Part shown: positions 6,684 through 37,815 of the stretch, in pieces
Position numbering within the stretch: the stretch's first letter is position 1
Layout: the number at the start of each line of letters is the position of its first letter
Source of the DNA: Phycisphaerae bacterium
GTDB lineage: Bacteria > Planctomycetota > Phycisphaerae > WQYP01
Reading direction: 5' to 3'
Assembly (NCBI GenBank): GCA_035545015.1
Contig: DASZZD010000032.1
Span: forward strand, 1 to 64,000
DNA length: 64,000 bases
Notes under the pieces: generated by a model
Seen by the model: the letters and a program-made list of their open reading frames with translations, nothing else
Told to the model about the DNA's origin: nothing
Databases searched by the model: none
Translations under genes and position numbers: made by a program

Positions 6684-6761
6684 AGTAGTCAGTAGACAGA
6701 AGGCAGTAGTCAGCAGTGTGGAAAGCGGCTCCCGTGTTCTGATTACTGACTTCTGACTCCT
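6684..6761. repeat. paired inverted heptamer-repeat clusters (AGTAGTC family; 5 units, 22-nt spacer, 3 inverted units) immediately upstream of groES
   Basis: AGTAGTC AGTAGAC AGAAGGC AGTAGTC AGCAGTG (6684-6718) and the inverted GATTACT GACTTCT GACTCCT (6741-6761). Confidence 0.6.
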
Positions 6762-6772
6762 GGCTTCCCGGT

Positions 6773-7330
6773 TCATACGGGCCATTGGTTCTGGTGAAAG
6801 CGCCGCAACGCGCGGGCCATCACTTCGAGCATCATGTTGACGTCCACCGGCTCCGAGAGCACGGAGAACGCGTTGAATCGCAGGGCCTCATGCAGGAGCT
6901 GTTTGTCCTGGCGGGCGGCGATGAGGATGACGGCGGGGTCGGGTTTGACCTGCGCCGGGCTGGCATCGAAGCGGACTTCGATGCGGCGGTGCTGGCCCGC
7001 GGGATCGGGCTCATGGATGTTCACCTGGAGATCAAAGCCGCCGGGCGCGGGCGACGCCGGGGGCCGTGCCTGACCGCGGAGCTTCTGAATCAACTGCAGC
7101 ACGTTGATGCCGCTGATGGATTGAAGTCGCGAGTCGACAACCGCCAGGTGAATCGGGTGACGCTCGATGAGATCGACGGCCTGCGCCCCGGTGGTGGCCT
7201 CGAACGTTTTGACGCCCATGGGGGCGAGCAGGTGGTTCAAGGTTTGATACCAGGGCTGCCCTGCGAAGGGCTTTTGCTCTTCGTGGGTAAGCAGGAGATT
7301 GAGTCGAGCGTCGCCTCCCATAAGGATCAC
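6773..7330 (-). CDS. divergent (pseudo-)receiver domain protein
   Basis: Weak CheY-like receiver pattern (HLAVVDSRL, ..AVILIAARQD..LRFNAFSVLSEPVD) with an about 35 aa insert. The acidic pocket is not conserved. Confidence 0.35.
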   Translation of the reverse strand: MILMGGDARLNLLLTHEEQKPFAGQPWYQTLNHLLAPMGVKTFEATTGAQAVDLIERHPIHLAVVDSRLQSISGINVLQLIQKLRGQARPPASPAPGGFDLQVNIHEPDPAGQHRRIEVRFDASPAQVKPDPAVILIAARQDKQLLHEALRFNAFSVLSEPVDVNMMLEVMARALRRFHQNQWPV

Positions 7331-11172: not shown

Positions 11173-11432
11173 GGGGGAATCTCCGGAATGGAGAGTTATT
11201 TTAGCTGAGTGGGCGAGGCGGAGCGAGTTGAAAGTGAGGAAGGCGAGGAGGGATAAAGCGAGAAGGGCAAATGGCAAATGATGGCGGCGGGGGGAGGGGG
11301 CGCGCGGAGCGGGCGAGGGGGCGGGTGCGAGCGGGGGCACAGTGGATCCAGGGGGCGGAGCCCCTGGGCTTGAGTGGGAAGGAGGGAGGAGGTTGGCGAA
11401 GGCGGGGAGTTGGGTGGTGGGGAGCCAGCGCG

Positions 11433-11497
11433 GCGGGATGGCGGTGTGGGTTTGGAGGGGGACGTATGGCCAGAGCGCCAAGAGCGCCTGGGTTTTT
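11433..11497 (-). repeat. copy A of a conserved about 65 bp core repeat (extended similarity about 11270-11690) in the recQ 5' region, containing palindrome GGCGCtcttgGCGCC
   Basis: Reverse complement aligns at about 85-90% with 21521-21585 upstream of putA (aaaaacNNNggcgctcttggcgcYctggccatacNtNcccYtccaaNNccacaccgccaNcccgc). In frame it encodes ALLALWPYVPLQTHTA versus ALLAPWPYLPFQLHTA. Confidence 0.7.
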
Positions 11498-11636
11498 GGG
11501 GTTGGGTGGGCGCGGGCGGGTTTTGGGGAGTGGGATGGTGTTGGCGTGGCGATGAGGAGGGGGCGGAGGGAGGGGGGGCGTTTTGTGGCGGGAGGGGCGG
11601 TGGGATCGGTGGGTTCGGGCACGGGCGAGGCGTGGG

Positions 11637-11666
11637 GTAATTGGTAACTGGTAACTGGTAATTGGG
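11637..11666. repeat. tandem heptamers GGTAATT GGTAACT GGTAACT GGTAATT in the recQ leader / N-terminal extension
   Basis: Direct inspection. 30 nt, in frame (QLPVTSYQLP on the minus strand). Confidence 0.6.
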
Positions 11667-11946
11667 CGGCGGCGGCGGTGGTCATAGGCTTCTCCCTTTT
11701 GTCGGTTCCTCTGAAAGAGAGAACGTAAGGGGGGGCGGAAAGGTTCCCGAAAGGTTTGGATTTTTTTAGGGTCTGCGGGCGTTGGATGTAAGTGTTTTCA
11801 GGTGATGGGGTTGTGGGTGTAGCGTTTGGCGGATTCCACCGTCTTTCGATGGTCATCAGCGTTCGCCCCTTCCGCGTTTCACAGTGTTGGATGAACGAGC
11901 GTTGCAAGAGCTACGAGAATTCTTCGTTGAGTGAGGTCGTGCGCTG

Positions 11947-16603: not shown

Positions 16604-16636
16604 AAAAGACGAAAGACGAAAGAAAGACGAAAGATG
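16604..16636. repeat. tandem heptamers AAAGACG x3-4 in the 56-nt pilT-pilB2 intergenic spacer
   Basis: ggaaaAAGACGAAAGACGAAAGAAAGACGAAAGATgggg, flanked by G-runs. Confidence 0.55.
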
Positions 16637-21370: not shown

Positions 21371-21399
21371 TTGCATGTAAGCATTATGTTAGGTATAAT
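21371..21399 (+). promoter_or_regulatory. sigma70-type promoter TTGCAT-N17-TATAAT upstream of putA
   Basis: ttgcatGTAAGCATTATGTTAGGtataat in an AT-rich patch. An SD GGGAGAAGG and ATG 21426 follow within about 25 nt. Confidence 0.6.
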
Positions 21400-21425
21400 A
21401 CCTACCGCTCGCTGGGAGAAGGAAC

Positions 21426-24400: not shown

Positions 24401-24629
24401 CTCCCACATCGCCGCCGCCCGCAATCACTTCCTCGTCGGCAACCTCTACATCAACCGCTCCATCACCGGTGCCCTCGTCGAACGCCAGCCCTTCGGCGGC
24501 TTCGGCCTCTCCGGCGCAGGCTCCAAAGCCGGCGGACCCCACTACCTCCTCCACTTCACAGACCCCCAGGCCACCTCCGAATCCACCCTCCGCCACGGCT
24601 TCGCACCGGAGGTCACTTCAGATGACTGA
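21426..24629 (+). CDS. putA: bifunctional proline dehydrogenase / delta-1-pyrroline-5-carboxylate dehydrogenase PutA (with 81 aa Pro-rich N-terminal extension)
   Basis: PRODH arm/barrel region and aldehyde dehydrogenase motifs (VIAPWNFPLSIATGM, FTGSKTVG, CEMGGKNAMIV, GQKCSAGSRLIL). ATG 21426 has a strong SD and the promoter just upstream. Conventional core start ATG 21669 (MQRHT...). Confidence 0.9.
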   Translation: MPTTPPYPPRPTSSPPTRTAPPAPNASPTPPGKNVALLAPWPYLPFQLHTASPLATTASPPRPPKPAASYNDPRRPHRGPPMQRHTATSAPPTPPTPPAAHAPALEARTQSLGRELLAASRASPASSLSKKFWSDKLLAFALQNERFKNELFRFIDVFPALRTPAAINQHLHEYLLRPDLSLPAGLSLALKAGNLLKGAQASALTAQVQSMARTFIAGQTLDDALPALAARWAEGIAFSVDLLGEAVVSHAEAHAYRARYDQLLDALPSAVAAWPANPLLDSDHLGPIPRANVSIKISALDGRVTPIDADVPGGTLDRLTEALAPLLEKAARHNVLINFDMERHALHELTLRLFKRCCERFDFPAGLALQSYLRSVHEDASDLIAWSKRLNRRVTVRLIKGAYWDYETIHAQMMNWPAPVWPRKHLTDAAFENTAALFLRNTPNRAGEGGITLAVGTHNVRSVARTLALAEHFDLPPNAVEFQALRGMADDLKHALAARKLRVREYVPLGDLIPGMAYLVRRLLENTSNTGWLHADTTSAPAEQLLASPHIEQPAAMLEDSPAKRSSFRNEPLRNFSLAQVRGAFMEAIAGAALPRVENNTTLETAQHMVRSATEAFPAWRDTPVDQRAAIIEAAADRLSNVRDTLAAMIVKESHKTWPEADADVCEAIDFCRYYALHARLLQNPHRTGPALTGERNELRHIPRGPTAVIAPWNFPLSIATGMTVAALVTGNPVILKPAEQTPAIAAALAHHLHAAGIPKNVLHFCPAPGETVGAALVRHPLITTIAFTGSKTVGLDILRAAADTPPDAPFIKRVVCEMGGKNAMIVDDTADLDDAVLAVRHSAFSYAGQKCSAGSRLILLDSIHDAFLARLIESTRALILGDPQNPSTDLGPVIDAEAANKIRRYIDIGKQEATLAYPDDDAAEIENRKLKIENAIPPHIFTNVPADSRLATDEIFGPVLAVLRAKDFPHALHLANLSAYKLTGGLFSRTPSHIAAARNHFLVGNLYINRSITGALVERQPFGGFGLSGAGSKAGGPHYLLHFTDPQATSESTLRHGFAPEVTSDD
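21521..21585 (+). repeat. copy B of the conserved core repeat shared with the recQ 5' region (inverted orientation relative to copy A)
   Basis: See copy A (11433-11497). C-rich on the sense strand. Encodes ALLAPWPYLPFQLHTA within the PutA N-terminal extension. Confidence 0.7.
24198..24231. repeat. tandem heptamers GAAATC GAAAATC GAAAATT GAAAATT GAAAATG inserted in-frame in putA
   Basis: Encodes EIENRKLKIEN within the P5CDH domain. Low-GC patch inside an otherwise C3-rich gene. Confidence 0.6.
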
Positions 24630-24651: not shown

Positions 24652-26346
24652 TCACGGCACCACCGGCGTCGTCCGCACCGCCGTCTCCGGCGCGGCTATC
24701 TCCTCATCCACCGCCTTCCCCATGTACCCCGGCAACTCCACACCGCCGATGTCTTTCATCACCTGCATCATCGGCGGCATCATCCGGGCCATGTTCTGGA
24801 TGAAGCCGGCCGCTCCCGACCCGTGTCCATTGCCATTCCCGTTCGTGTGCGCCGCGCCGCCTTCCCACACCACCACCTTGTCGAACTTGATGTTCGCGAT
24901 CGCCGCCGCCGACGTCTCGGCCAGCTTGTCGATGTGCTCCAGCATCAGCAGTTGATACGCCTGATCCGCCCCGCCGCACGCCGCGATGATCTGCTTCAAA
25001 CCCTCGCCCTTCTTGGCCAGGATTTCATATTGACCGCGCGCTTCCGCTTCCAACCGCGCGAAAATCGCCGCCGCCTCGCCCTCGGCCTCGACGCGCCGCT
25101 TTTCCGCCGCCGCCTGGGCATCCACGATGATCTTCGCCTTCTCCGCCTTCGCCGGCGCTTCGAGCGCCGCACGCCGTTCCGCCTCCACCCGCTCCGCCTC
25201 CGCCAGGGCCGCCTTGGCCAGCGCCCGGTTCTGCGCTTCCTGCACCGCCGCATCCGCCTCGCGCTTGCGCGTCTCGCCAAGCTGGAACGCCTCCGCCTGC
25301 TTCACCTGCAGTTGCGCCTGGGCCGCCACCACCATCGCCTGGGCCTTCGATTCGCCATCGATCGCCTTGGCGTTGGCGTCCGCGATCGCCACGCGCATCG
25401 CCTGTTCCGCATCCTTCACCTTGGCGTCGCGCTCGAACGCCGCCGCCTGCTCCGCGATCTTCTGATCTTTGCTCAAGTCCGCCAGCTTCACCGCCTGGTC
25501 ACGCAGCGCGGTCTGCTCGCCGATCTTCTGGTCGCGGTCCAATTCCGCCACCTTCACCGCCTGCTCGCGCTGCGCATCCCGCAAACCGATCGCCTTGAGC
25601 TGCTGCGCCTGCGCCACCTGGATCGCCTTTTCACGCTCCGCATCCGCAACGCCGATCGCCCCCATCCGCTCCTGCCCCGCCACATCCACGAGCGCCTGCT
25701 GCACCGCCTGTGCCGCCGCCTTCTTGCCTACCGCCACGATATACCCGGACTCATCATCGATGTCCGTGATGTTCACGTTCAGCAGCACCAGCCCGAGCTT
25801 CCGCAGTTCCGGTTCCAGCGACGCTTGGATGTTCTTCAAAAATTGCTCGCGGTGCCGCGCGATGTCCTCGATGCGCATCGACGCCACCACCTCGCGCAAC
25901 TGCCCGAAGATGATGTGTTCCACGCGCCCCTGCAGCTTGTTCTGGTCCAATCCCAGCAAGCGGATCGCCGCGTTCTGCATCAGCTCCGGCTCCGTGCCGA
26001 TCGCGATCGTGAACACGCTGGGCACGTTCACCCGGATGTTCTCGATCGACAACGCCCCCTTCAACGGAATCTCAATCTGCAGCGGCTCCAGCGACAGATA
26101 GGCATAGTCCTGCACCAGCGGCATGATGAAGGCCGCGCCGCCATGGATGCACCGCGCCGGCGCCCCCTTGCCCGCCTTGCCGTATATCACGAGCACCTTG
26201 TTGCTGGGGCACCGTTTGTAGCGCCCGACGAACATGCTCAACAAAAAGAAGAACATCAGCGCCACCACCGCCGCCAATGCGCCGATCCATTCCGCGGCGG
26301 TCACATCCGCCACCAACGCCAGTCCATGAATTGCCTGCACGTTCAT
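24652..26346 (-). CDS. flotillin / SPFH (band 7) domain protein
   Basis: N-terminal TM helix, SPFH domain and a long Ala/Glu/Gln-rich coiled-coil typical of FloT/YqiK flotillins. Confidence 0.85.
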   Translation of the reverse strand: MNVQAIHGLALVADVTAAEWIGALAAVVALMFFFLLSMFVGRYKRCPSNKVLVIYGKAGKGAPARCIHGGAAFIMPLVQDYAYLSLEPLQIEIPLKGALSIENIRVNVPSVFTIAIGTEPELMQNAAIRLLGLDQNKLQGRVEHIIFGQLREVVASMRIEDIARHREQFLKNIQASLEPELRKLGLVLLNVNITDIDDESGYIVAVGKKAAAQAVQQALVDVAGQERMGAIGVADAEREKAIQVAQAQQLKAIGLRDAQREQAVKVAELDRDQKIGEQTALRDQAVKLADLSKDQKIAEQAAAFERDAKVKDAEQAMRVAIADANAKAIDGESKAQAMVVAAQAQLQVKQAEAFQLGETRKREADAAVQEAQNRALAKAALAEAERVEAERRAALEAPAKAEKAKIIVDAQAAAEKRRVEAEGEAAAIFARLEAEARGQYEILAKKGEGLKQIIAACGGADQAYQLLMLEHIDKLAETSAAAIANIKFDKVVVWEGGAAHTNGNGNGHGSGAAGFIQNMARMMPPMMQVMKDIGGVELPGYMGKAVDEEIAAPETAVRTTPVVP

Positions 26347-26391
26347 CGCTGCTCCTTCCTAAAACCCGCCCGCCCCGAGGTTCCAGTCTCT

Positions 26392-27204
26392 TCATGCCGC
26401 GGTCGCCGGCGCCAGGTCCGGCAGATATTTTTCCCCCGAGACCACTTCCACCACGCCGTTGTCCTGCACGCCCACCACCATCACCGGCTCGCCCCGCGCC
26501 AGCGGCCGCTCCTCATAGCTTACCGCCGCCAGCTCCATCGTCCGCCCGTGCACCTTCACGAGCACCTTGCCCAGCCCGCCCTGATCCGCAGGAATGCTGA
26601 GATACACTTTTCCCAGCGCTCCCACAGCCTGTTCCATCTGAACCGTGCCGTCCTCATCCATATTGATCATGGCGGTAAAAATCGCCGCCACGATCATCAT
26701 CATTGCAAGTCCGGCTCCCAACGCAATGCCCAGCACGGCCGCGGTGGAAAAACCGCCCGCCGTGGCCGCCAGCCCCGCGAGGCCCAGCACCGTCGCACCC
26801 GCCACCAGTCCCTGGAAATTCAACAGGCTGTGGAGCCAGATCCACGCCGCCGAATCGCCGCCCGCCGGGAAAGCGTTCGCCGCATGCTGATGCGTCCGGT
26901 GCGCATGCGCTGCCGCCACCGCCGCGATCGCCTTGGCCTGCGGCGACAAGTGCGCCGGCGCTCCCTTCACCGCGGTCCCCGCCTTTGCGCCGTGCCCTCC
27001 CGCCCGATGCAGCGACGTGCGCAATCGTCCGCCGCCCTTTGCGCCCGCTCCGCCGCGCGCGCCATGATGACCCCACCCGCGACTCCCTCCGTGCCGCACG
27101 TGCGGACCATGATGCACCCCGATCGCCAGCGCGCTCAGCAGCGCCTGGACAACCACCAGCGCCCCGCCCCCGGCAGCACAGATCACGAGAAACATCCGTA
27201 ACAT
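26392..27204 (-). CDS. NfeD-family membrane protein (flotillin-associated), C-terminal OB-fold
   Basis: Multiple TM helices then GKVLVKVHGRTMELAAVSYEERPLARGEPVMVVGVQDNGVVEVV. Directly upstream of flotillin on the same strand (NfeD-flotillin operon arrangement). Confidence 0.7.
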   Translation of the reverse strand: MLRMFLVICAAGGGALVVVQALLSALAIGVHHGPHVRHGGSRGWGHHGARGGAGAKGGGRLRTSLHRAGGHGAKAGTAVKGAPAHLSPQAKAIAAVAAAHAHRTHQHAANAFPAGGDSAAWIWLHSLLNFQGLVAGATVLGLAGLAATAGGFSTAAVLGIALGAGLAMMMIVAAIFTAMINMDEDGTVQMEQAVGALGKVYLSIPADQGGLGKVLVKVHGRTMELAAVSYEERPLARGEPVMVVGVQDNGVVEVVSGEKYLPDLAPATAA

Positions 27205-27385
27205 CCCGACGTCCCTTTCTGGGAGCGCACCCCGTCAACGCCTCCATTATTGAGTACGCTTCCCCCCCACTCAACCCTTTTCTTTCATCTATCCATTACG
27301 CGATATTCCCGCCCCTTTCCCGCACCGCCGCAAACGCCCCCAAGCCATTTACCAATCCCGCCATACCCCCTACCATGGCTCTTCC

Positions 27386-28105
27386 ATGCCCGCTTCCTGC
27401 GTCATCTTCGATTTCGACGGCGTCATCGCCGATACCGAATCCCTCCACCTTGCCGCCTATAACCGCACCCTCGCGCGGCATGCGGCCGACATCGGCGGTC
27501 CCCTCGAAATTCCGCGCCCCGCTTACTTCGGAAAATACATCGTCTTCGGCGACACCGAAGCGTTTTTCCATATGCTCCGCGACCATGGCCGCCCGACCGA
27601 TCCCGCCCTCATCGACCGCCTCGCCGCCGCCAAGCACGCCCTCTTCGAAAACAGCCTCACCTCCGGCCACCCCTTCGAGCCCCTCCCCGGGGTGCGCGAC
27701 ACCCTCGCCTTTCTTGAATCCCACAACGTCCCCCGCGCCATCTGCTCAGGCGCCCGCCGCGGCGAAATTATCGACCTCCTCGACGCCTTCCAGCTTCGCC
27801 ACCATTTCGACGTCCTCGTCTCCATAGAAGACGTCCGCCGCGGCAAACCGGACCCCGAAGGCTACAACCTCGCCTTCGACAAGCTCAATCTGGAATATGA
27901 TGCCGAGCTCGAAAAAGAAAAATCCCTCGTGATCGAAGACTCCGCCGGCGGTTGCGCCGCCGCCCAGGCCGCCGGCCTGCGCGTCCTCGCCGTCGCCACT
28001 TCCTTGCCGCTGGAAGAAGTCCGTCGCTGCGCCACCTTCGCCCTGCCCGACCTCTCCCATCTCACCCCCGCGCAACTCGCCGAGTGGCTTCACGTGCACG
28101 CGTAG
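27386..28105 (+). CDS. HAD-superfamily hydrolase (beta-phosphoglucomutase-like)
   Basis: Motif I VIFDFDGVIADTE. Motifs II-IV (ICSG, K..PDPEGY, IEDSAGGCAAAQAAG). Confidence 0.85.
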   Translation: MPASCVIFDFDGVIADTESLHLAAYNRTLARHAADIGGPLEIPRPAYFGKYIVFGDTEAFFHMLRDHGRPTDPALIDRLAAAKHALFENSLTSGHPFEPLPGVRDTLAFLESHNVPRAICSGARRGEIIDLLDAFQLRHHFDVLVSIEDVRRGKPDPEGYNLAFDKLNLEYDAELEKEKSLVIEDSAGGCAAAQAAGLRVLAVATSLPLEEVRRCATFALPDLSHLTPAQLAEWLHVHA

Positions 28106-28173
28106 CGAAGCCTCCGATGCGGGCGGAAACCCCGTGACCCACCTCACGTTCAGTACCGGCCAACCCATCAAGC

Positions 28174-28601
28174 TCATGCTCGTCCCCGCCACCTCACCCT
28201 GAAGCGCGTAACGGCAGCGATCGCCAATGCCAACGCCGCCACCAAGCCCTCGACAACCCGCGTCTCACACAATGCCCACACCTCCTTTGACGCCACATCA
28301 TGCGGGGGGCGGCTCATCAAGACGTCCAGCAGGACGTTTGTGTCCACCAGCACCAGAAGCCATATTTCTCCTCCAGCCCTTCTTCCAAGGACCTCCCGGT
28401 CGCTCTTGCGGGTTGTCACACGCACAAGACCAGATGCCTTTCGCGTGATGGGAGACACATCTTTGTTTTTCGAGCGCTTCGCCGATGCCGCCCGCACGAA
28501 TGTCGCGAACAGTTCCGACACGCTTGTTCCCCGCCGCGCCGCCAGTTCCTTCGCCGCCTTTACCACCTCCGGATCGGCGCTCAGGTCAATTTCGTCGCCA
28601 T
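28174..28601 (-). pseudogene. decayed vapBC-like toxin-antitoxin remnant (RHH antitoxin-like region fused in frame to an N-terminal fragment of a PIN domain)
   Basis: RHH-like IDLSADPEVVKAAKELAARRGTSVSELFATFVRAAS, then the PIN N-terminal signature LVLVDTNVLLDVL, ending after about 60 aa. SD+ATG at 28601 is in the +1 frame relative to the RHH frame (apparent 1-nt indel). G-ending codon style. Confidence 0.45.
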
Positions 28602-28660
28602 ACGCACTCTCCTTATACGTATGTAACTTACCATACGCCGGGGAGTGCCCGACTATCTCC

Positions 28661-31600
28661 TCACGGCGTGTGCACCTTGTCCGCGGGCTTCGCTCCCTGG
28701 CCATTGCCGTGGCCGTGGGTCGTTTCCGTGTGTCCCGCATGTTCGCCGGGCGTGACGGTGACTTCGTCGGTATCGGCCGCCGCGAAGGCCGCCTGCAGTT
28801 CCTTGTGGGTGCGGGCGCTGCGGAAGAAGGGAATCCGGTCCAGCACGTTTTCCTGGATCCATTCGAGGTACAGATAAATCACGGGCGTCACGAAGAGCGT
28901 GATGAGCTGCGCGAACAGCAGGCCGCCCACGATCACCAGGCCCAGGGGCCGGCGCGAATCGGGGTCCGCGCCCGTGCCGATGACCAGGGGAACGGCGCCC
29001 ATCACGGCCGCGCCGGTGGTCATGATGATCGGCCGGAAGCGGTCCATCGACGCATCGTGAATGGCCTGCTTGGCGGGCTGTCCCTCGCCGACGCGCTGGA
29101 TGGCGAAGTCCACGATCATGATGCCGTTCTTCTTCACGATCCCCATCAGCATGAACATGCCCACGAACGCGTAGAGCGTCGCCTCGGCGGGCACGAAGCC
29201 CGCGATGTGATGGTTGGCCAGAAGCCACGCCCCGCCCAGGTTCCAGAGCGCCAGCGTGCCCAGCCCGCCGAACAGCGCCACCGGCAGCGTCGAGAGCACC
29301 GTGATCGGGTGCAGGTACGATTCATACAGAATCCCCAGCACCACGTACATGATGAACACCGCCAGGAACATCAGCCCGATCAGGGCAGGGACCGTCTGGC
29401 GGAACGTCTCCGCCTCGCCCTGGAGGAATCCATGGACGGTCGGGGGGAGCACTTCCTTGGCCGAATCCTGAATGTATTTCGTCGCATCGCCGATGTTCGC
29501 CCCGGGCGCCAGGGCATAGCTGATCGTGACGGAGGCGAACTGGTTGATGTGATTCACCGCCTGCAGGCCCAAATCCTGCTTCCAGGTCGCCACCGCCTTC
29601 AGGGGCACCAGCCGCTGGCCGTCATCGGAGCGCACGTAAAGCAGGTCCAGGTCCGAAGGCTGCGACCGATCGGCGTCGGGCGCTTCGAGGATGACCTGGT
29701 ACTGATTGTGCGGGTCCTTGATGAGATAGATGTAATTTTCCGAATAGGCCGCCCGCAGGAGCGCCACGATGCGCTGGGCCGACACGCCGTAATAGGACGC
29801 CTGATCGCGCAGGACATTGATTTCAAGCTGCGGCGTGGAATGCTGGTAGTCGGAGCTGAAATACATGAACATCGATCCCTGCTTGGCGGCGAACTTCCCC
29901 ATCATCCGCTGGGCCGCCGCGTACACTTCGTCAGGATCGGTGCCGGACATGGCGAACGAGTATTTACCCGCGAGCTGCGAGGCTCCGCCCACGGAAATCT
30001 GCAGCACCGGCTGCGGGCCGAACAGCGGCACGACCCCGGGAATCTGCGACGCCGCGCCGATCAACTGCCCGTCCACCGCATCGATCGGCGCACGCTTGGA
30101 CCGATCCGTGAGAAAGGCGATCACCAATCCGTCCGACGATGCGAGAAACTGGCTGTTGCCGGTCATCGTGAAGGTGGTCTGCACCGCCGGATTCGCCTGG
30201 ATGACCTTCTCCACCTGCGACTGATACGCCCGCATCTGCTCCGGCGAGGAGCCTTCCTGGGCGCGCATCAATCCCAGGATGAACCCGGAATCGCCCACCG
30301 GCAGGAACGCTTTCGGAACGATCTGGAACAGGTACACCGTTCCCGCGAGGCACACCACGAACACCGCGATCGAGATCACGTGGAACCGCAGGAAGAACCA
30401 CAGCACCCGCCCGTACACCGCCAGCACGCGCTTCTCCACCGACCCGATCAGGCGCTCGGCGATGGTCTTCTTCGATCCCGGCCCGCGCCCGCGCAAAAGC
30501 CGCGAGCACATCAGCGGCGTGATCGTCAAGGACACCAGCCCGGAGGCGAGGATGGCGATGATGATCGTGACCGCAAACTCATTGAAGATGCGGCCGATCA
30601 GCCCGGGCATGAACACCATGGGGATGAACACCGTCGACAGCGACAGGGTCATGGACACGATCGTGAAGGAAATCTCGCGCGCCGAATGCAGGGTCGCCGT
30701 CAGCGCGGGCTCGCCGTGCTCCATGCGCCGCACCGTGTTTTCCAGGAACACGATCGCGTCATCGACCAGGAACCCGATCGCCAGCGTCAGCGCCAGCAGC
30801 GACAGGTTGTCGATCGAGTAGCCCAGCAGGCGCATGGCGATGAAGGTCAGAAACAGCGAAAGCGGCAGCGCCACGACCGGGATCAGCGTATCCGACACGC
30901 GCCCCAGGAACGCGAAAATCACCAGCACCACCAGCACGAACGCCAGGTACAGCGTGCCCGTCGCGTCATCGACCGAATGCACGATGGTTTGCGAACGGTC
31001 ATACACCGGGATGATGTGGATCGACCCCGGCAGGTCCGACAGAATCGCCGGCACGAGTTCCTTCACCGATTTGGCCACAGCCACCGCGTTGGCTCCCGCC
31101 TGGCGCGACACGGCCAGGATCAGCGTGGCGCTGGGCACATCGGTTCCGCGCTGCCAGAAGCGCATCGAGACGCGCTCGTCCTGCACGGAATCGGTCGCGG
31201 TGGCCACATCCTTGAGATAGATGGGCGTGCCCCCCTTGAGGCCCACGATCAGCTTGTTGTAATCGGCGGCGTCGGTGATCTGGGTGTTGGGATTGAGCAG
31301 AAACGAACGTGTCGGCCCGTCGATCTGCCCCGCCCCGGAGTAAGGCGTCGCGCTCTGCACGGCCGCCGACAAATCCGTCAGCGTCATGTCCCGCGCCGCC
31401 AGCTCGGAGGGATCGGCCTTGATGCGCACCGCGGATTGCGTCCCGTAAATGTCGCAGCGCGACACTCCCGGCAGGGTCGCAATGCGCTGCTGCACGTCCA
31501 GCGACGCATAGTCATACAGCCGCGCCGCCGTCACCGAGCTGCTGGTCATGGCGATGTACATGATCGGCTGGTCGTTGGGATTCGTCTTTGAGAACGTCGG

Positions 31601-31984
31601 GGGCGAAGGCAGGTCGACCGGCAGCGAGCCCCCCGCCGCGGAGATCGCCGTCTGCACGTCCGTCGCCGCCGCGTCGATGGACTTGGTGAGGTTGAATTGC
31701 AGCGTGATCGAGCAGTTGCCCTGCGTGGATTTCGAGGTCACCAGGTCCAGGCCGGGGATCTGCATGAACTGCTTTTCCAGGGGCGTGGCGATATTCGCGG
31801 CCACCGTTTCCGGCGATGCCCCGGGATAGGACGCCCGCACCTGGATCACGGGATAATCGACGGCCGGCAGGTCGTTCACCGGCATCGCCAGGTAGGACAT
31901 GATCCCGAAGAGAATCGCCGCCAGCGTCAGCAGCACCGTGAGCACCGGCCGGCGCACGAAGGGCTCGGAAATGCTCCTCATCAC
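28661..31984 (-). CDS. RND efflux transporter permease (AcrB/HAE1 family)
   Basis: 1107 aa, 12-TM architecture, N-terminal MMRSISEPFVRRPVLTVLLTLAAILFGIMSYLAMPVNDLP typical of AcrB-like pumps. Confidence 0.93.
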   Translation of the reverse strand: MMRSISEPFVRRPVLTVLLTLAAILFGIMSYLAMPVNDLPAVDYPVIQVRASYPGASPETVAANIATPLEKQFMQIPGLDLVTSKSTQGNCSITLQFNLTKSIDAAATDVQTAISAAGGSLPVDLPSPPTFSKTNPNDQPIMYIAMTSSSVTAARLYDYASLDVQQRIATLPGVSRCDIYGTQSAVRIKADPSELAARDMTLTDLSAAVQSATPYSGAGQIDGPTRSFLLNPNTQITDAADYNKLIVGLKGGTPIYLKDVATATDSVQDERVSMRFWQRGTDVPSATLILAVSRQAGANAVAVAKSVKELVPAILSDLPGSIHIIPVYDRSQTIVHSVDDATGTLYLAFVLVVLVIFAFLGRVSDTLIPVVALPLSLFLTFIAMRLLGYSIDNLSLLALTLAIGFLVDDAIVFLENTVRRMEHGEPALTATLHSAREISFTIVSMTLSLSTVFIPMVFMPGLIGRIFNEFAVTIIIAILASGLVSLTITPLMCSRLLRGRGPGSKKTIAERLIGSVEKRVLAVYGRVLWFFLRFHVISIAVFVVCLAGTVYLFQIVPKAFLPVGDSGFILGLMRAQEGSSPEQMRAYQSQVEKVIQANPAVQTTFTMTGNSQFLASSDGLVIAFLTDRSKRAPIDAVDGQLIGAASQIPGVVPLFGPQPVLQISVGGASQLAGKYSFAMSGTDPDEVYAAAQRMMGKFAAKQGSMFMYFSSDYQHSTPQLEINVLRDQASYYGVSAQRIVALLRAAYSENYIYLIKDPHNQYQVILEAPDADRSQPSDLDLLYVRSDDGQRLVPLKAVATWKQDLGLQAVNHINQFASVTISYALAPGANIGDATKYIQDSAKEVLPPTVHGFLQGEAETFRQTVPALIGLMFLAVFIMYVVLGILYESYLHPITVLSTLPVALFGGLGTLALWNLGGAWLLANHHIAGFVPAEATLYAFVGMFMLMGIVKKNGIMIVDFAIQRVGEGQPAKQAIHDASMDRFRPIIMTTGAAVMGAVPLVIGTGADPDSRRPLGLVIVGGLLFAQLITLFVTPVIYLYLEWIQENVLDRIPFFRSARTHKELQAAFAAADTDEVTVTPGEHAGHTETTHGHGNGQGAKPADKVHTP

Positions 31985-33189
31985 TCATTCCTCCCCGTCG
32001 CGGGAGCGGTCGCGGCCGGTGGCGTCGCCGCCCCCGCCGTCCCGCTTTCCTGCGTCGATGGGCCGCCCACTGACACGTCCGGCACCCCCTCCACCGGCGG
32101 CACCACATGCACCAGGCCCCCCGACGTCACCGACAACTGCCCCGTCTGCACCACCCGGTCCCCGGCCTTGACCCCCTTCTCAATCACCACCATCGCCCCC
32201 TGCCGCTGGCCCATCTCGATCGGCCGCTGCTCCGCCTTCGAATCCGCGCTCAGCACGTACACATACGGTCCCTGCTGGCCCATCTGGGTGCACTGATAGG
32301 GTATGAGCACCGCGTCCTTGAGCGTCCGCAACACGAGGCGCACGTTCACGAACTGCCCCGGCCACAGATACTTGTCCTCGTTCTTCAGCGTCGCCTGCAC
32401 GCGCAGCCGCCCCGCCCCCTGCTGCACCGACGTATCCAGAAACGTGAGCGGACCGCTGCGCACTTCCGCCGGATTCTGCGGCACGGTGACCTGCACCTCC
32501 AGCGTGCCCTCATCCGACAACTTCCGCACTTCCGGAAAATCCCGCTCGGTTACCGTGAAATCGACATACAACGGCTGCAACCGCTGGATGGTCAAAATCG
32601 AGGTCTGGTTGGCGTTGACCACGTTGCCCACATCCACCAGCCGCTGGCCGGCCCGGCCGTCGATCGGGGAATCGATGTAGCAGAAGGAGAGGTTCAGCTT
32701 GGCGGTGTCGAGGTCGGCCTGATTGACGGCCACATCCGCGACCGCGGTATCGACGGCGGCCTTCTTGGTGTCGAGGTCCTCCTGCGAGGCCGCATGCACG
32801 GCGAAGGCCTGCTGCAAGCGCCGGTAATCCGCATCCGCCAGCTCCTTCTCGGCGAGGGCGTGCTGCACGTTGGCTTCGGCCTGCTTGACCTTGGCTTCAT
32901 AGGGCCGCGGATCGATCGTGAACAGGTGCTGGCCCTTTGTGACCATCGCCCCGTCCTGGAACAGCCGCTCGGTGATCTGCCCCCCCACCTGCGGCGTGAT
33001 GTTCACCAGCTCGCTGGCCACGGTATGGCCGATTTCATCGATATACTGCGGCACATCCTGCTGCACCGCGGTCGCCACCGTCACCGGCGGCGGCGGACGG
33101 GTGGCCTGCTGTTGCGGCGCGCCCTTCCCGCATCCGGCCAGCGCCGCACCGATCGACAAGACGACAATCCACTTCGCACGCACGTCCAC
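31981..33189 (-). CDS. RND efflux periplasmic adaptor (membrane fusion protein, AcrA/MexA-like)
   Basis: Lipoprotein signal (LAGC), coiled-coil hairpin and beta-barrel MFP regions. 4-nt overlap with the RND gene. Confidence 0.88.
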   Translation of the reverse strand: MDVRAKWIVVLSIGAALAGCGKGAPQQQATRPPPPVTVATAVQQDVPQYIDEIGHTVASELVNITPQVGGQITERLFQDGAMVTKGQHLFTIDPRPYEAKVKQAEANVQHALAEKELADADYRRLQQAFAVHAASQEDLDTKKAAVDTAVADVAVNQADLDTAKLNLSFCYIDSPIDGRAGQRLVDVGNVVNANQTSILTIQRLQPLYVDFTVTERDFPEVRKLSDEGTLEVQVTVPQNPAEVRSGPLTFLDTSVQQGAGRLRVQATLKNEDKYLWPGQFVNVRLVLRTLKDAVLIPYQCTQMGQQGPYVYVLSADSKAEQRPIEMGQRQGAMVVIEKGVKAGDRVVQTGQLSVTSGGLVHVVPPVEGVPDVSVGGPSTQESGTAGAATPPAATAPATGRNE

Positions 33190-33271
33190 AAACGCTCCTT
33201 CAGGGACCCTGTTCTCGGCAGATTCCCTTTACAATAGCCGCGCCCCACCTCGCCCGGCAAGGCGCTAACAA

Positions 33272-33284
33272 TTGCATCATGCAA
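33272..33284. promoter_or_regulatory. perfect palindrome TTGCAT-C-ATGCAA in the divergent promoter region upstream of the RND efflux operon (candidate operator)
   Basis: Direct inspection. Located about 85 nt upstream of the MFP start codon (33189). Confidence 0.35.
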
Positions 33285-33300
33285 ATGTCGTCCCTGCCCC

Positions 33301-33543
33301 TTGTTTACCGCCCCCGCCCCCCCCCTGACCCACCGCCGCCTCAAGATATTCGCCACCCGCTTCGTCAACGATCCGCTCGGATTCGATGAAGCCTATAAAC
33401 GCGTCCATGATGCATGCTTCCCCGACGGTCTGACCCCGCCTTTTTGTGCCTATCAGGACTTGGTAACATTAAAAACGGTCGCCGGCCGGCCGCAGGACTT
33501 GGCCGACCTCCAAGAGCTGCGCACTGCTCGAGGTGAAACGTGA
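33301..33543 (+). CDS. small hypothetical protein with C-terminal GRPQDLADL motif
   Basis: 80 aa. The C-terminal ..LVTLKTVAGRPQDLADLQEL resembles C-termini of small nucleotidyltransferase-fold proteins. Stop overlaps the GTG start of the next ORF (GTGA). Confidence 0.3.
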   Translation: MFTAPAPPLTHRRLKIFATRFVNDPLGFDEAYKRVHDACFPDGLTPPFCAYQDLVTLKTVAGRPQDLADLQELRTARGET

Positions 33544-33764
33544 CCCCGCAGGCCTCCACCCGATCTTCTCAGGAACCATCCTCGTCGTGGGACGCCGGAA
33601 CCTTCGAAAGCTTGCGCCGCCGGCAACTCCAATGCTGGGCCGGCACCCCGTTCATCGAGAAAGTGCGCTGGCTCGAAGAGGCCCAGCGCGTGGCCAATCA
33701 CTTGCGTCCCCTGCAATCCGTCCCGCAAGCTCCCGACGCTTGGGCATCAGGCGCCCATGGCTAA
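33540..33764 (+). CDS. small hypothetical protein, translationally coupled to the preceding ORF
   Basis: 74 aa, GTG start, no recognisable domain. Coupling is the only support. Confidence 0.25.
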   Translation: MTPQASTRSSQEPSSSWDAGTFESLRRRQLQCWAGTPFIEKVRWLEEAQRVANHLRPLQSVPQAPDAWASGAHG

Positions 33765-34072
33765 CAACAGACTGCCCCTGGACCAGCAACCCCCGCCGCC
33801 CCACGAGTGACCGTAATCCCGCAATGCGCAAAGCAGCGGAACGCTGATGCGTGTCATCCCCGTCCGGAGTGAAGGGGGTGACGAGACCGGTAGACTTTCC
33901 AGCGCGAGCGATCCATCCTGCCTTCCCTCATGGTGGCCAAAGCCGATCGCTCTCGTCCCGCCCTATGGCCGGGATGGGGACGACAGACTTTTGCGTGGCG
34001 TGCGTTTTGCGAATGGTCGGGCGGGGGATAGGATCGGGGTGGAGTTTGCGTGTCCCTTTGTCGAGGGTGCCG

Positions 34073-36550
34073 ATGGGTAGTGGGTCAGCGATGCATCCGG
34101 GGGCGGGAGACGGAGGGAGCGGAGGCGAGGCGGAGGGGGGCGGGAGGCGGGCGGCCAACAGGCTTATCGAATCGACCAGTCCGTATCTGTTGCAGCACGC
34201 GCACAATCCGGTGGACTGGTATCCCTGGGGGGAGGAGGCGTTCGCCAAAGCGCGGGCGGAGGGGAAGCCGATCTTTTTGTCGATCGGGTATTCGGCGTGC
34301 CACTGGTGTCACGTGATGGAGCGGGAGGTGTTCGAGAAGCCGGCGATTGCGGAGGTGATGAACGCGCATTTCGTGAACATCAAGGTGGACCGTGAAGAGC
34401 GGCCGGACGTGGATGACGTGTACATGCTGGCGACGCAACTGATGACCGGGAGCGGGGGTTGGCCGATGAGCGTGTGGCTGACGCCGGAGTTGAAGCCGTT
34501 TTACGCGGGGACCTATTTTCCGCCGGAGGATGGGGCGCATGGGAGGCCGGGGTTTGTGCGGCTGGAAAAGGCGCTGGCGGAGGCGTGGGCGAATCGGCGG
34601 GGGGAATTGCTGGAGCAGGCCCGGCGCGTGGCGGAGGCGGTGCATATCCACGCGGATGAAGGCGGGGGAGCGGGGGCGGGGCCTGTGGACATGGCGGCGT
34701 GGGCGGTGAAGGGATTGGAGGAATTCGCGGATCGGTTTGATGAGGCGCACGGCGGGCTGGGCGGCGCGCCCAAGTTTCCGCCGCACCAGGCGCTGGCGCT
34801 CTGGCTCACGATGCTGCGCCATCCCAACGCGGCGCAGTTGTCGCAGGAAGAGGTGGCGGCGGTCGAGATGATGGTCGCCGGCACGCTCGACGGCATGATG
34901 AACGGCGGGATTTACGATCAGGTCGGCGGGGGCTTCGCACGCTATTCCACCGACGAGAAATGGCTGGTGCCGCACTTTGAAAAGATGCTCTACGACAACG
35001 CGCAGCTCGCCGCCGTGTATGGGCTGGCGGCGGCACACTTCGGGCGCGGCGATTATGCCCGCGTGGCGCGGCAGACGCTCGATTTCTGGCTGCGCGAGAT
35101 GACCGGCGAACGCGGGGGCGGCGGCGGGTTTTATTCGACGCTGGATGCGGATTCCGAAGGGGCGGAGGGGAAGTTTTATGTGTGGACCGTTGCGGACGTG
35201 CGGGCGGCGCTGGGCGACGGGGCGGGCGGGGATGATGCGGCGCTGATGATGGAGCATTTCGGCGTGACGGAGGCGGGGAATTGGCACGAGTCGCCGGTGC
35301 CGAGCGGGAACGTCTTGAGCGTGGTCAGGGATGTGGAGACGCTGGCGCGGGAACGGGGAGTGAGCGTGGAGGCCATGCGCGGGCGGATCGACGGCCTGCT
35401 GGTGAAGATGCGAGAATGGCGGGCCAGACGCGTGCCGCCCGGGCTGGATGACAAGGTGCTGACAAGCTGGAACGGCCTGATGATCTCGGCGCTGGCGATC
35501 TGCGGGCGCGTGCTGCGCGAGCCGCGCTACCTGGAGGCGGCCCACCGGGGGATGGGGTTTCTGTTGACGGAGCATATGGAAGGGGGACGGCGGTTGCTGC
35601 GGGTGTCGCGGGGGAAAAACACGAAACACGAGACACGAAACACGAAACTGGGGCCGGTCGCCTCGGGCAGTGCGCATACGGACGGGTTTCTGGAGGATCA
35701 CGCCTTCCTGCTCAACGGCATGATGGATCTCATCGAATCCACTACCGCGACCAGCCTCCCGGGTACCATGGCCCGCAAGCGCGCGCTCGAACTGGCCGAC
35801 GTGATGGTGAAGCATTTTGAGGACCCCGAGAAGGGGGCGTTTTTCTTCACCTCCCGGAAGCACGAGGTGCTCTTCGCGCGCATCAAGAACGCGGCCGACA
35901 ACGCGACGCCCTCCGCCAACGGGATGGCCATCCGGGCGCTGCTGCGTCTGGCGGCGGAATCGGGCCGGGAGGAATACCGCGAGAAGGCGCTGCGGGCGGT
36001 CGGGGCGTTCGCGGCCACGATCGGCCGGCGTCCCGATTTCTTTCCGACGATCCTGCAGGCGCTGGTCGAGGACATGGAAGCGCGCACCCGCGGCGTCGGC
36101 GGCGCGCGGGAAACCCTGCCGATCCGCCCGGCCCTCGTCGATGTGGGCCACGGCGCCGGCGGCGGAAGCAAGGTGCTCTCCGTCAACGCCCACGCCGGGA
36201 AGGTGGCCGACGGAAAATTTGAAGTGTTGGTCGAACTCACCCTGGCCGAGGGCTATCACGTCCAGCCGCACCATCCCCAGGACCGCGAAGCCTTCGCCAC
36301 CGTGGCCCGCGTGCGCGGCGACCTGCCCCTGGCCAAACAGGAATGGACTTACCCCGCCGGCGGTGAGGAAGATCACGCCTACGAAGGCAACGTCCGCATG
36401 ATCGGCGCCTGCACCCTCGGCGGCGGAGCGGCGGGGGTGAAGCCCGGAAAATATCCCATGCGCGCCACCGTGCTCGCCCAGCCATGCTCCGGAGCAAGCT
36501 GCCTGGCGCCGGAGAAAGTCAGCGCCGAGTTCGTGGTGGAAGTTCCTTGA
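34073..36550 (+). CDS. thioredoxin-domain protein of the YyaL/DUF255 (SSP411-like, N-acylglucosamine 2-epimerase-like) family
   Basis: [41 protein letters not shown] motifs. The ORF is open from 33851 and the start is uncertain (ATG 34073 or 34091). N-terminal two-thirds G3 codons, C-terminal third C3 codons. Confidence 0.85.
35616..35650. repeat. tandem heptamers AAACACG x4 (+AAACTGG) inserted in frame in the thioredoxin-domain gene
   Basis: gggggAAAAACACGAAACACGAGACACGAAACACGAAACTGGGG encodes [14 protein letters not shown]. Coincides with the switch in codon style. Confidence 0.6.
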
Positions 36551-36792
36551 GGAAGCCATTTCAAAAAGCGTGGCATTGGCGTCCGGCCCCATGCTCTGAT
36601 CGAGAAAAACAGGGTTACTCGAACATGGGCAGGATGCCCATGCCACTTTATGAAATGGCGGGGCGGGGACGGGGGGGGGGGACGTGTCGATAAAACTTTG
36701 TGTTAGATGAGGCGGACACGAACCGTCTTACTTGACATGCGCGGGGACGGGGAGTATTTCCACGGGTCTTTGCTTGATAGCGTGGAGGCAGG

Positions 36793-37815
36793 ATGGCGAC
36801 GGTTGAGTCGAAGCCGCGAGGGGGCGGAGTTGGGGCGACGGGAAGCGGGACCGGCGGGGGTCCGGACATCGTGGTGGAAAATCTCACGAAAGCCTACGGT
36901 AATTTTGTCGCGGTCAAGGGCATTTCCTTCCAGGTGCCTCGCGGCGAGATCGTCGGCTTCCTCGGACCCAACGGCGCCGGGAAAACCACGACCATCCGCA
37001 TGCTGACCTGCTACATGCCCCCCACCAGCGGCCAAGCGAGCGTCGCGGGACACGACGTGTTTCGCGAATCGCTGGAAGTGCGGAAACACATCGGGTACTT
37101 GCCCGAATCCACGCCGTTGTATACGGAAATGCGTGTCGGCGAATACCTGGATTTCAAGGCCCGCCTGCACGGGATGGACCGCGAGGCCCGCCGCAGACGC
37201 GTGGCCGAGGTCGCCGCCCGCTGCTGGCTGACCGATCGGCTGCGCAGCCTCGTGGGCACGCTGTCCAAAGGCTATCGCCAGCGCGTGGGGATCGCGGATG
37301 CGATGCTGCACAATCCCAGTGTTCTGGTGCTCGATGAGCCCACGGTCGGCCTGGACCCCTCGCAGATTCGCGAAGCGCGAAAGCTCATTTCCGAACTCGG
37401 GGGCGATCACACGGTGATGCTCTGCACGCACATTCTGCAGGAAGTGGAAATGGTGTGTCAGCGCGTGATCATCGTGGCGCAGGGGCGGATCGTGGCGCAG
37501 GGCACGCCGGAGGAATTGAAGAATCGCGCCGGGGCGGGGATTCGCGCGGAGGTGCGCGGGCCGACGGATCAGGTGCAGGCGGCGCTCAGAGCGTTGCCGG
37601 GGGTGGAGAAGGTGGATGTGCTGCAAGGCGCGGGCGTGGGGGGAGGCGTGGGGCGGTTCAACGTGCGGGGCCGGACGTCGGCGGAGCTGCGGGAACAGAT
37701 CGCCGCGACCGTGGGCCAGCGGGGGTGGAGCTTGCGGGAACTGCGGACCGAGGGTGCGAGCCTAGAAGAATTCTTCGTGCAGATCACGGACCCGGGCGGG
37801 GCCGTGGCGGCGTGA
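36793..37815 (+). CDS. ABC transporter ATP-binding protein (GldA-like, ABC-2 type)
   Basis: Walker A GPNGAGKTT, signature LSKGYRQRV, Walker B LVLDEPTVGLD. Confidence 0.88.
   Translation: MATVESKPRGGGVGATGSGTGGGPDIVVENLTKAYGNFVAVKGISFQVPRGEIVGFLGPNGAGKTTTIRMLTCYMPPTSGQASVAGHDVFRESLEVRKHIGYLPESTPLYTEMRVGEYLDFKARLHGMDREARRRRVAEVAARCWLTDRLRSLVGTLSKGYRQRVGIADAMLHNPSVLVLDEPTVGLDPSQIREARKLISELGGDHTVMLCTHILQEVEMVCQRVIIVAQGRIVAQGTPEELKNRAGAGIRAEVRGPTDQVQAALRALPGVEKVDVLQGAGVGGGVGRFNVRGRTSAELREQIAATVGQRGWSLRELRTEGASLEEFFVQITDPGGAVAA

Follow-up and report, generated by a model that had tools for sequence, protein, structure and literature searches.

The stretch of DNA considered here, referred to as the window, comprises the 64,000 nucleotides at positions 1 to 64,000 of contig DASZZD010000032.1 from a soil Phycisphaerae bacterium (assembly GCA_035545015.1). 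It contains an intact gene of the YyaL/SSP411 type, whose codon style changes along its length and which carries an in-frame tandem array of the heptamer AAACACG (Table 1). An original prediction had described the gene as G-ending up to the array and progressively C-ending beyond it, and had proposed that the array marks, or mediated, a recombination junction at which a foreign segment replaced the 5′ part. Its assignment of the gene to the thioredoxin-domain family is borne out: the 825-residue product matches PF03190 (Thioredox_DsbH) with E = 2.6e-75 and 252 bits against a cut-off of 27, over profile positions 2–162 of 163, and is identical to database protein P0001, recorded as 'MAG TPA Phycisphaerae bacterium'. 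An independent assembly (locus L088, GCA_964631025.1) reproduces window positions 24658–37489 with 1 mismatch in 12,832 bases (99.992% identity).

An AlphaFold2 model of the protein, built with 70 homologues (mean predicted local distance difference test score (pLDDT) 87.7; predicted template modelling score 0.82), shows a thioredoxin domain, an (α/α)6 barrel with helices up to residue 673 and a C-terminal β-sandwich. The CxxC motif, C76-H77-W78-C79, is invariant among 17 aligned homologues (alignment A1). The best match among solved structures is 7TKV from Brucella (Foldseek E = 2e-40, TM-score 0.84 on the target, 646 aligned columns), and epimerase and GH76 barrels come after it in the Foldseek list. 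With the known Thioredox_DsbH/YyaL/SSP411 structures (DUF255; 7TKV, Brucella Bab1_2064; 3IRA), the protein shares a CxxC thioredoxin domain followed by an (α/α)6 barrel; it differs from them in its extra C-terminal β-sandwich and in a 17-residue, repeat-encoded loop insertion. PF11412 (DsbD_N), which is on record for homologues P0003 and P0016, was not detected in the C-terminal domain of the window protein. The gene is an intact, ordinary family member, and nothing unusual follows for the gene itself.

The lysine/threonine-rich peptide encoded by the array had been taken for a linker between two domains. In the model it instead forms a loop inside the barrel: residues 516–531 have pLDDT values below 50, are preceded by strands at residues 507–513 and are followed by a helix at residues 540–555. 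The true inter-domain linker lies more than 150 residues further on (Table 1).

The codon shift was measured solely at fourfold degenerate sites, so that amino-acid content cannot interfere, and is expressed as G/(G + C), hereafter the G fraction. The predicted shift from G-ending to C-ending codons is real: the G fraction falls from 0.76 (n = 271) 5′ of the array to 0.43 (n = 170) 3′ of it (Fisher p = 6.4e-12). Codon statistics are likewise not uniform when the gene is cut into five equal fifths (χ2 = 80, p = 2e-16). The shift is not, however, a single switch at the array. Likelihood segmentation yields five segments with at least four boundaries (segments A–E, Table 1), and the 5′ part, said to be G-ending up to about 35610, contains the mixed 370-base stretch of segment B. 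A single change point is best supported at 36067 (likelihood ratio 54, reached by none of 5000 permutations), approximately 420 bases 3′ of the array and near the boundary between the barrel and the C-terminal domain (residues 665–701). One weaker boundary does coincide with the array: within 35127–36066 the best cut is at 35659, with a 2-lnL support interval of 35614–35719 (permutation p = 0.0125). By a rough estimate, the chance that one of about four boundaries in 2.5 kb, with support intervals of about 100 bases, falls on the array is approximately 20%.

Table 1. Features of the thioredoxin-domain gene and its surroundings (window coordinates; G fraction, G/(G + C) at fourfold degenerate sites).
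Feature	Position	Strand	Remarks
Upstream intergenic region	33229..34072		844 bases; plus-strand skew flips from C-rich to G-rich; synteny with L001 breaks
YyaL/SSP411-type thioredoxin-domain gene, intact	34073..36550	+	825 amino acids; thioredoxin domain, (α/α)6 barrel, C-terminal β-sandwich
Segment A, G-type	34084..34747	+	G fraction 0.90, n = 105
N-terminal extension	34100..34155	+	G-rich, low-complexity, disordered, poorly conserved; pLDDT <50 at residues 1–22; variable in alignment A1
Thioredox_DsbH domain	34157..34642	+	Residues 29–190, with CHWC motif; Pfam, alignment A1
Segment B, mixed	34753..35125	+	G fraction 0.49, n = 72
Segment C, G-type	35128..35656	+	G fraction 0.82, n = 99; 19 consecutive G sites at its end
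Disordered surface loop in the (α/α)6 barrel	35615..35665	+	Residues 515–531; insertion relative to most clade members
In-frame tandem array, AAACACG × 4.6	35617..35648	+	Third unit AGACACG; Tandem Repeats Finder, period 7, 92% matches
Segment D, mixed	35659..36082	+	G fraction 0.57, n = 79
C-type or neutral DNA	36067..37350		About 1.3 kb; 3′ end of the gene, spacer, 5′ half of ABC-ATPase gene
Segment E, C-type	36085..36538	+	G fraction 0.29–0.30, n = 89; last barrel helix, linker, C-terminal domain
True inter-domain linker	36119..36163	+	Residues 683–697; pLDDT <50, between helix 658–673 and strand 702–708
C-terminal β-sandwich domain	36176..36544	+	Residues 702–824; AlphaFold2 model
ABC-transporter ATPase gene	36793..37815	+	Pfam ABC_tran; first gene of the block syntenic with L001 (12723–13661)

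The two outermost segments carry opposite full signatures in three independent classes of synonymous site (fourfold G/C, twofold C/T and twofold A/G). At twofold sites, segment A has C/(C + T) of 0.52 and G/(G + A) of 0.76, the signature of a G-rich strand, and segment E has 0.78 and 0.48, respectively, the signature of a C-rich strand. The C-type stretch does not end with the gene. The plus-strand G fraction is 0.25–0.45 over 36067–37350, where twofold sites are also C-strand-like, against 0.62–0.82 beyond approximately 37350, and a change point within the ABC-ATPase gene at 37413 separates values of 0.45 and 0.78 (likelihood ratio 21). As this 1.3-kb patch spans the stop codon and the spacer and extends for 0.8 kb past the thioredoxin-domain gene into the next one, it points to an event at the level of DNA and not of protein.

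The patchwork does not depend on codon family, neighbouring bases or location along the gene. All eight fourfold codon families show the segment effect, and so does every class of following base, which rules out the codon-family mix and next-base context as its cause, although a context effect does exist, with G favoured ahead of a following C. A general 5′-to-3′ gradient of clade genes is ruled out as well: in 82 other clade genes the position effect is small (+0.07 to +0.13) and does not reach beyond codon 50, and the window gene exceeds it. No shared site-specific profile was found among eight other orthologues (r = −0.43, not significant), and C sites are shared only weakly among the G-rich orthologues.

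The surrounding genes give the codon shift its context. In the first 1–21 kb of the window, plus-strand genes have coding-strand G fractions of 0.90–0.95 and minus-strand genes of 0.04–0.17; the plus strand is thus G-rich in genes of both orientations, and the bias follows the DNA strand, not transcription. The bias is reversed in 21.4–28.1 kb and 53–64 kb and is intermediate in 28.6–51 kb. T exceeds A on the strand on which G exceeds C, so that the AT skew is opposite in sign to the GC skew, and twofold C/(C + T) is 0.34–0.62 on G-strand genes and 0.73–0.77 on C-strand genes. Per kilobase, raw GC skew reaches +0.52 and −0.39 in this genome of 65% GC, and relatives L084 and L086 show similar skew, up to +0.57 and −0.51. 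Because of this extreme strand-specific skew, there is no single C-ending host background that the 3′ remainder of the gene could resemble: coding-strand G fractions across the window genes range from 0.04 to 0.95 depending on the strand, and the genes directly downstream, at 0.58–0.72, are moderately G-rich.

Polarity in the window does not change solely at a replication origin and terminus. At least three reversals occur within 64 kb, at approximately 21.3, 33.5 and 46–52 kb, in addition to the changes inside the gene. Sign changes of this number indicate either that rearrangement or recombination is superimposed on the bias, or that the bias has another cause. The gene itself lies at a rearrangement breakpoint, as the synteny with L001 ends directly upstream of it and SecA occupies that position in L085, L086 and L087 (three of the four more distant relatives compared). 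Upstream of the gene, the window has minus-strand resistance-nodulation-division (RND) efflux genes, where L001 has unrelated plus-strand genes, and the cumulative GC skew has a local minimum at 33–34 kb. Downstream, the window and L001 have in common genes for the ABC ATPase, an ABC-2 permease, DUF7088, DUF4340, two LptF/G proteins and OEP; this order is shared by these two only, and L084–L087 have a different short gene of 178–199 amino acids in this place.

Strand-specific codon usage arising from replication-associated mutational bias on leading and lagging strands has been described in Borrelia, Chlamydia muridarum (PMC2089121) and Lawsonia intracellularis (PMC2671203). The window resembles these cases in that codon choice is set by the DNA strand, G and T are enriched together, and gene orientation is irrelevant. 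It departs from them in that its bias is far larger (G fractions of 0.9–0.95 or 0.04–0.17, and a GC skew of 0.3–0.5 per kilobase at 65% GC), its polarity is reversed three or more times over 64 kb and also inside a gene, and the link to replication is only assumed. In a survey of 7738 assemblies, most high-GC bacteria were near zero skew and the Borreliaceae were outliers (PMC6042203). The bias in the window has the classical direction of strand asymmetry, and its magnitude is very unusual for a genome of 65% GC. A search of the literature for extreme GC skew or heptamer arrays in Phycisphaerae found no description of either.

Orthologues of the gene span G fractions from 0.27 to 0.95. The G fraction is 0.95 in L003, 0.93 in L086, 0.83 in both L084 and L087 and 0.73 in L085, and it is 0.60 in L092, 0.45 in L090, 0.37 in L001, 0.33 in L093 and 0.27 in L091; donors of either polarity therefore exist in the clade. 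Since the orthologues of the first five relatives are G-rich (0.73–0.95), the G-rich part looks like the norm of the family and the C-rich 3′ end like the derived oddity, and not, as had been proposed, the G-rich 5′ part like the intruder. The orthologues of L003 and L086 remain at 0.93–0.95 throughout. Two orthologues that have no heptamer array are internally uneven: that of L085 (10001–12475; the same sequence in L089) passes from 0.92 to 0.41 and back to 0.86, and that of L090 (approximately 4600–6990) rises from 0.2–0.35 at its 5′ end to 0.72 at its 3′ end, a gradient opposite to that of the window gene.

The closest orthologue, P0002 (loci L001 and L002), is 86% identical and has the same rises and falls of the fourfold profile at a lower G level. 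At fourfold sites with a conserved amino acid, the patterns for window, L001 and L003 are GGG at 82 sites, GCG at 75, CCG at 66 and CGG at 14, which makes the C sites of the window largely a subset of those of L001. Within the gene, C sites of the window and L001 are associated with a Mantel–Haenszel odds ratio of 5.8. Because the profile of L001 has the same shape and the C sites of the window are nested in its own, the event behind the codon shift is not recent, and these comparisons of sequence place the patchwork before the split of the window species from the L001 species (GCA_035548175.1). With L003 as outgroup, the older C fraction shared by the two species is 11%, 31%, 16%, 37% and 62% in segments A to E, a range that a uniform process does not yield. 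The possibility that the C-type patch was recently exchanged with a lineage like L001 was rejected, as fourfold identity there is close to the compositional expectation and twofold identity is not raised.

Protein phylogenies do not divide the gene in the same manner. Each of the five segments has P0002 as its nearest relative and P0003 as the next. Neighbour-joining bootstraps of protein regions recover P0001 with P0002 at 100% for residues 29–514, for residues 529–664 and for the C-terminal domain; P0003 follows as next relative at 100%, 86% and 23–32%, respectively, with no supported alternative for the C-terminal domain, whose phylogeny lacks resolution but shows no conflict. At codon positions 1 and 2, 181 sites group the window with L001 to the exclusion of L003, compared with 55 and 54 for the two alternatives, and no segment deviates or has an excess of sites at which the window agrees with L003. 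The C-terminal distance to P0003 is 2.7 times the N-terminal one, where comparable pairs have a median ratio of 2.17; this rank in the top 9–13% is not significant. Scans of sequence collections yielded no orthologue at 87–99% identity. Specifically, a profile search of genome contigs with alignment A1 gave only distant phyla among the matches listed, on the very conserved motifs CHWCHVM and KVDREERP; a metagenome search with a clade-specific fragment of 156 residues gave no match; and a second scan with alignment A3 gave only five clade members at 61–71% identity, none closer than P0003.

The array, whose position, reading frame and lysine/threonine-rich product were correctly predicted, is unique within the window, and no comparable match was obtained in 100 shuffles. 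It is built of codons that the rest of the gene seldom uses (AAA, CGA and ACA). All three lysine codons within it are AAA, against 6 AAA and 20 AAG outside it; correspondingly, both lysine codons in the array of L003 are AAA, against 1 AAA and 27 AAG outside. Owing to this use of rare codons, the array is not at mutational equilibrium, for which turnover through slippage and a constraint on its DNA sequence are the two candidate reasons. No inverted partner array was found near it, the best inverted match being one of 16 bases with 81% complementarity at a distance of 1.4 kb.

The loop that the array encodes is a gap in 10 of the 17 sequences of alignment A1, and most clade members have the short loop RVSRHGK-AH; insertions are present in P0001, P0002, P0003 and the group of P0005, P0006, P0009 and P0011. 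The array of L003 is in the same frame and reads AAACGCG AAACGCG AAACGAG AAACGCG AAAC (4.6 units), that of L088 is identical to the window, and in L087 (approximately 11500–11560, in the loop of orthologue P0006) there are approximately four decayed heptamers, GAAGCCA GAAACCA GGAGCCA GAAGCGA. In L001, the 7-base period has been lost by synonymous changes and the peptide is retained. The consistent difference between the units AAACACG and AAACGCG suggests either turnover or parallel A-to-G change. Taken together, these sequences suggest a single old insertion, related to the insertions of P0005, P0009 and P0011, whose 7-base period has stayed visible in several lineages.

The array does not travel with a codon switch, as the genes of L003 and L087, which carry homologous arrays, are uniformly G-rich (0.95 and 0.83). 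Among the 13 heptamer arrays of the window, the difference in skew between the flanks is near the 95th percentile of random positions for two only (those at 11636 and 35617). The suggestion that heptamers mark or mediate junctions is not upheld: there is no general link between heptamer arrays and junctions.

Two further genes of the window carry in-frame heptamer arrays. In PutA (21399–24629, plus strand), an AAATCGA × 4.6 array at 24199–24230 lies within the aldehyde-dehydrogenase domain and encodes ...AAEIENRKLKIENAI.... In RecQ (8758–11910, minus strand), an inverted pair of arrays, at 9792–9825 (GTCAGTN units) and 9855–9873 (CACTGAC units), surrounds a G-rich spacer; the pair is in frame and forms an insertion of approximately 29 residues, YFGQKYESP[VVSSQLSEDPAGGGGGAPLTTDHSALTTG]CHACDIC, directly ahead of the zinc-binding cysteines, and the Pfam RecQ_Zn_bind model of 66 positions is stretched over 101 residues in this protein. 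Further A/T-rich arrays of 2–6 heptamers with varied units are found at 6260–6278, 6737–6767, 7504–7535/7545–7579, 11266–11280, 11636–11665, 14667–14695/14735–14778 and 16605–16634, and seem to lie between genes or immediately 5′ of them. Two sets of these are inverted pairs that could fold as hairpins (ATTGCCC/CAATGGG and TGGTAAT/CCAATTA).

Heptamer repeats of cyanobacteria, known as STRR, are a familiar case of such arrays. Heptanucleotide arrays are an abundant class of prokaryotic long simple-sequence repeats (Mrazek and co-workers, as summarised in PMC4679880), and include the TAACTGA repeats of Beggiatoaceae, where the in-frame arrays of Beggiatoa are mostly at protein termini (PMC4679880). 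The arrays of the window resemble all of these in consisting of four to six heptamers head to tail, in being many per genome and mostly intergenic, and in occurring occasionally in frame within genes. Unlike the TAACTGA repeats, the in-frame arrays of the window lie in internal loops of conserved enzymes and not at protein termini. They also differ from known heptamer repeats in that their units are diverse and A/T-rich in a genome of 65% GC, some form inverted pairs, and the 7-base period at the AAACACG locus is retained in lineages that are only 72% identical in protein.

The best reading of these observations is that of one vertically inherited gene in a Phycisphaerae lineage with an exceptionally strong strand-specific substitution bias. 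It is proposed, with about an even chance of being right, that the patches are old, short tracts of homologous recombination between close relatives that had the locus on opposite strands, laid down under an extreme clade-wide strand bias and followed by amelioration. The bias, which favours G and T over C and A, respectively, on one strand and C and A on the opposite one, would write the strand history of a locus into third codon positions. If close relatives carried the locus in opposite orientations relative to the bias, tracts of 0.4–1.3 kb exchanged among them would leave G-type, mixed and C-type patches, and partial amelioration would then have continued strongly toward C in the L001 lineage. 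The opposite full signatures of segments A and E would hardly arise unless stretches that differ in strand history had been joined, and for this reason some form of recombination is the best explanation. The array would be a separate and older event, in which a long simple-sequence repeat was inserted in frame into a disordered barrel loop and inherited by several relatives. The patch boundary that falls on it is most likely a coincidence, and the 32-base conserved repeat could also have served as a crossover point.

Genes made mosaic by homologous recombination between diverged alleles are well known, the classic cases being pbp and penA of Streptococcus and Neisseria. The window gene resembles them in having blocks of a few hundred bases to approximately 1 kb, of sharply different character, within one intact gene, with one block reaching across a gene boundary. 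It differs in that its blocks are distinguished by strand-skew signature and not by divergence to identifiable donors, and in that its protein trees are congruent. If the proposed origin is true, codon style in this lineage reports strand history and not foreign origin, so that horizontal-transfer calls based on composition would be systematically misled, and the clade would lend itself naturally to reading the lengths of recombination tracts, and the history of its rearrangements, directly from sequence. It may also be asked which features of replication and repair underlie a GC skew of 0.3–0.5 in a free-living bacterium of 65% GC.

Several points weigh against recombination tracts. The gene has the distinct blocks and sharp boundaries of a mosaic, but blocks of different phylogenetic affinity or with an identifiable donor are absent: no donor lineage was found and every segment gives the same protein relationships, so that the case for recombination is drawn from composition alone. 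The Bayesian information criterion is nearly equal for three, four and five segments (534.0, 535.4 and 534.4), and the segment boundaries were picked post hoc, after inspection of the data. Between the window and L001, synonymous change is close to saturation, and the directions of change on the branches are taken from outgroup L003, which is at compositional equilibrium and holds little ancestral information. The sample contains only two relatives closer than 70% identity. Finally, the link of the strand bias to replication is an assumption, and the window has at least three polarity switches in its 64 kb.

The first of two main rivals dispenses with recombination and supposes that the locus changed strand at least once by inversion or translocation, and that the patches represent uneven amelioration toward the new equilibrium. 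Such amelioration of composition after inversion or transfer was reportedly described by Lawrence and Ochman in 1997, and it has been discussed for GC skew (PMC3269016). In its favour, the window shows several skew reversals and a large intermediate zone at 28.6–51 kb, and a rearrangement breakpoint lies immediately 5′ of the gene; intermediate skew in a zone that a breakpoint delimits is a feature in common with known amelioration. Furthermore, all phylogenies are congruent, the L001 lineage drifts further toward C, and the neighbouring genes at 38.7–45.8 kb are intermediate and nearly homogeneous (runs Z −0.7 to −2.3). However, amelioration alone predicts homogeneous intermediate values, whereas the window gene has sharp patches of less than 1 kb with complete and opposite signatures, twofold transition sites included. 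Adjacent stretches of 400–600 bases would need rate differences of more than 10-fold, yet G-to-C conversion on the L001 branch (outgroup L003) is similar in every segment, at 40–67%, and patch values are unrelated to protein conservation in either direction. Moreover, over the 12.7-kb block syntenic with L001, the values of the two species have no linear relation (r = 0.26; at 42–46 kb, 0.65–0.7 in the window against 0.05–0.17 in L001), which calls for region-specific histories. Pure amelioration is therefore judged unlikely.

The other main rival, a single ancient junction near 36.07 kb, is a weak possibility and is considered decidedly unlikely. In this scheme, two homologous copies recombined in the common ancestor of the window and L001 species during the rearrangement that gave the present gene order, so that a C-strand C-terminal domain and the ABC block came to follow 2 kb of G-strand sequence at the start of the gene; the dips of segments B and D are secondary. 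The strongest change point and its closeness to a domain boundary fit such a junction, as do the C-richness of L001 throughout from that point on, the downstream gene order confined to these two species, and the drop in bootstrap support for the link to P0003 in the C-terminal domain with its raised distance ratio. Against this, the excess in distance is not significant and no alternative sister group is supported, and the C-terminal domain is fast-evolving, so that amino-acid change driven by skew could inflate the distance. The two dips and the return to G-rich sequence after 37.35 kb are left unexplained.

A more far-reaching possibility, which is regarded as rather improbable, combines a mutational regime whose strand asymmetry would be without precedent among high-GC bacteria with A/T-rich heptamer arrays that are actively maintained, insert in frame into enzyme loops (in this gene, PutA and RecQ) and possibly act as crossover points between diverged alleles. 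If such a regime were real, every recombination tract or rearrangement would leave a readable scar of strand history, even inside genes. In favour of active maintenance, the array of this gene has retained both its period and its AAA codons in the window and in L003.

The original prediction, with a xenologous 5′ part up to the array, a junction marked or mediated by the array and a native 3′ part, is very unlikely to be right. The local change point on the array, the flank difference near the 95th percentile and the array's foreign-looking codons speak for it. Separate phylogenies of the two halves, the comparison by which it had proposed to be judged, are nevertheless congruent across the array (100% on both sides for the pair with P0002; 100% and 86% for P0003), and informative sites show no segment of foreign affinity, so that xenologous replacement across the array is refuted. 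A xenologous segment would show atypical overall composition or an incongruent phylogeny, and the GC content of the gene, at 0.67, is ordinary within the range of 0.55–0.72 across the window. L003 and L087 carry the array in genes that lack a switch; no array lies at the other three boundaries, and no boundary at 11 of the 13 arrays. The G-rich state is the orthologue norm, and the profile is older than the L001 split. What survives of the proposed junction is that, loosely speaking, the gene seems to join stretches of DNA whose histories, as told from their synonymous signatures, differ.

Selection on codon choice, mRNA structure or neighbouring-base context, which would create local preferences for G- or C-ending codons, could draw on the context effect and on the deviating first 50 codons of clade genes; it is largely refuted by the control for codon family and context and by the comparison of orthologue profiles, including the even G-richness of L003 and L086, and is hardly credible given that the C-type patch runs through non-coding DNA into the next gene. 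An assembly or binning chimera of co-occurring strains has negligible probability: the source is a metagenome-assembled genome, but the second assembly, under a different accession, agrees over 12.8 kb, and the profile takes the same shape in another species (L001, with L002 identical to it).

Among the sequences flanking the gene, no Rfam family was found in 28–40 kb. C- and G-rich runs in the two adjoining spacers (33317–33340 and 36657–36680) are 79% complementary over 24 bases; such inverted repeats could in principle allow inversion of a cassette that they bracket, but they were treated as low-complexity matches and are probably a coincidence. The spacer after the gene (36555–36659) contains the short palindrome CATGGGCAGGATGCCCATG (approximately 36626–36644) and a 14-base inverted pair (36555–36568/36646–36659), which from their sequence may represent a terminator or a regulatory hairpin.

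The local strand bias is reflected in N-terminal stretches of low conservation. The extension of the thioredoxin-domain protein is rich in glycine, glutamate and alanine and contains repeats of 10–11-mers at 34105–34154 (Tandem Repeats Finder). Similarly, the upstream part of the PutA open reading frame (21430–21800) is rich in proline, threonine and alanine and has a C-run (Tandem Repeats Finder, 21694–21738). These two stretches suggest that the strand bias shapes, or even creates, unconstrained coding or pseudo-coding sequence.

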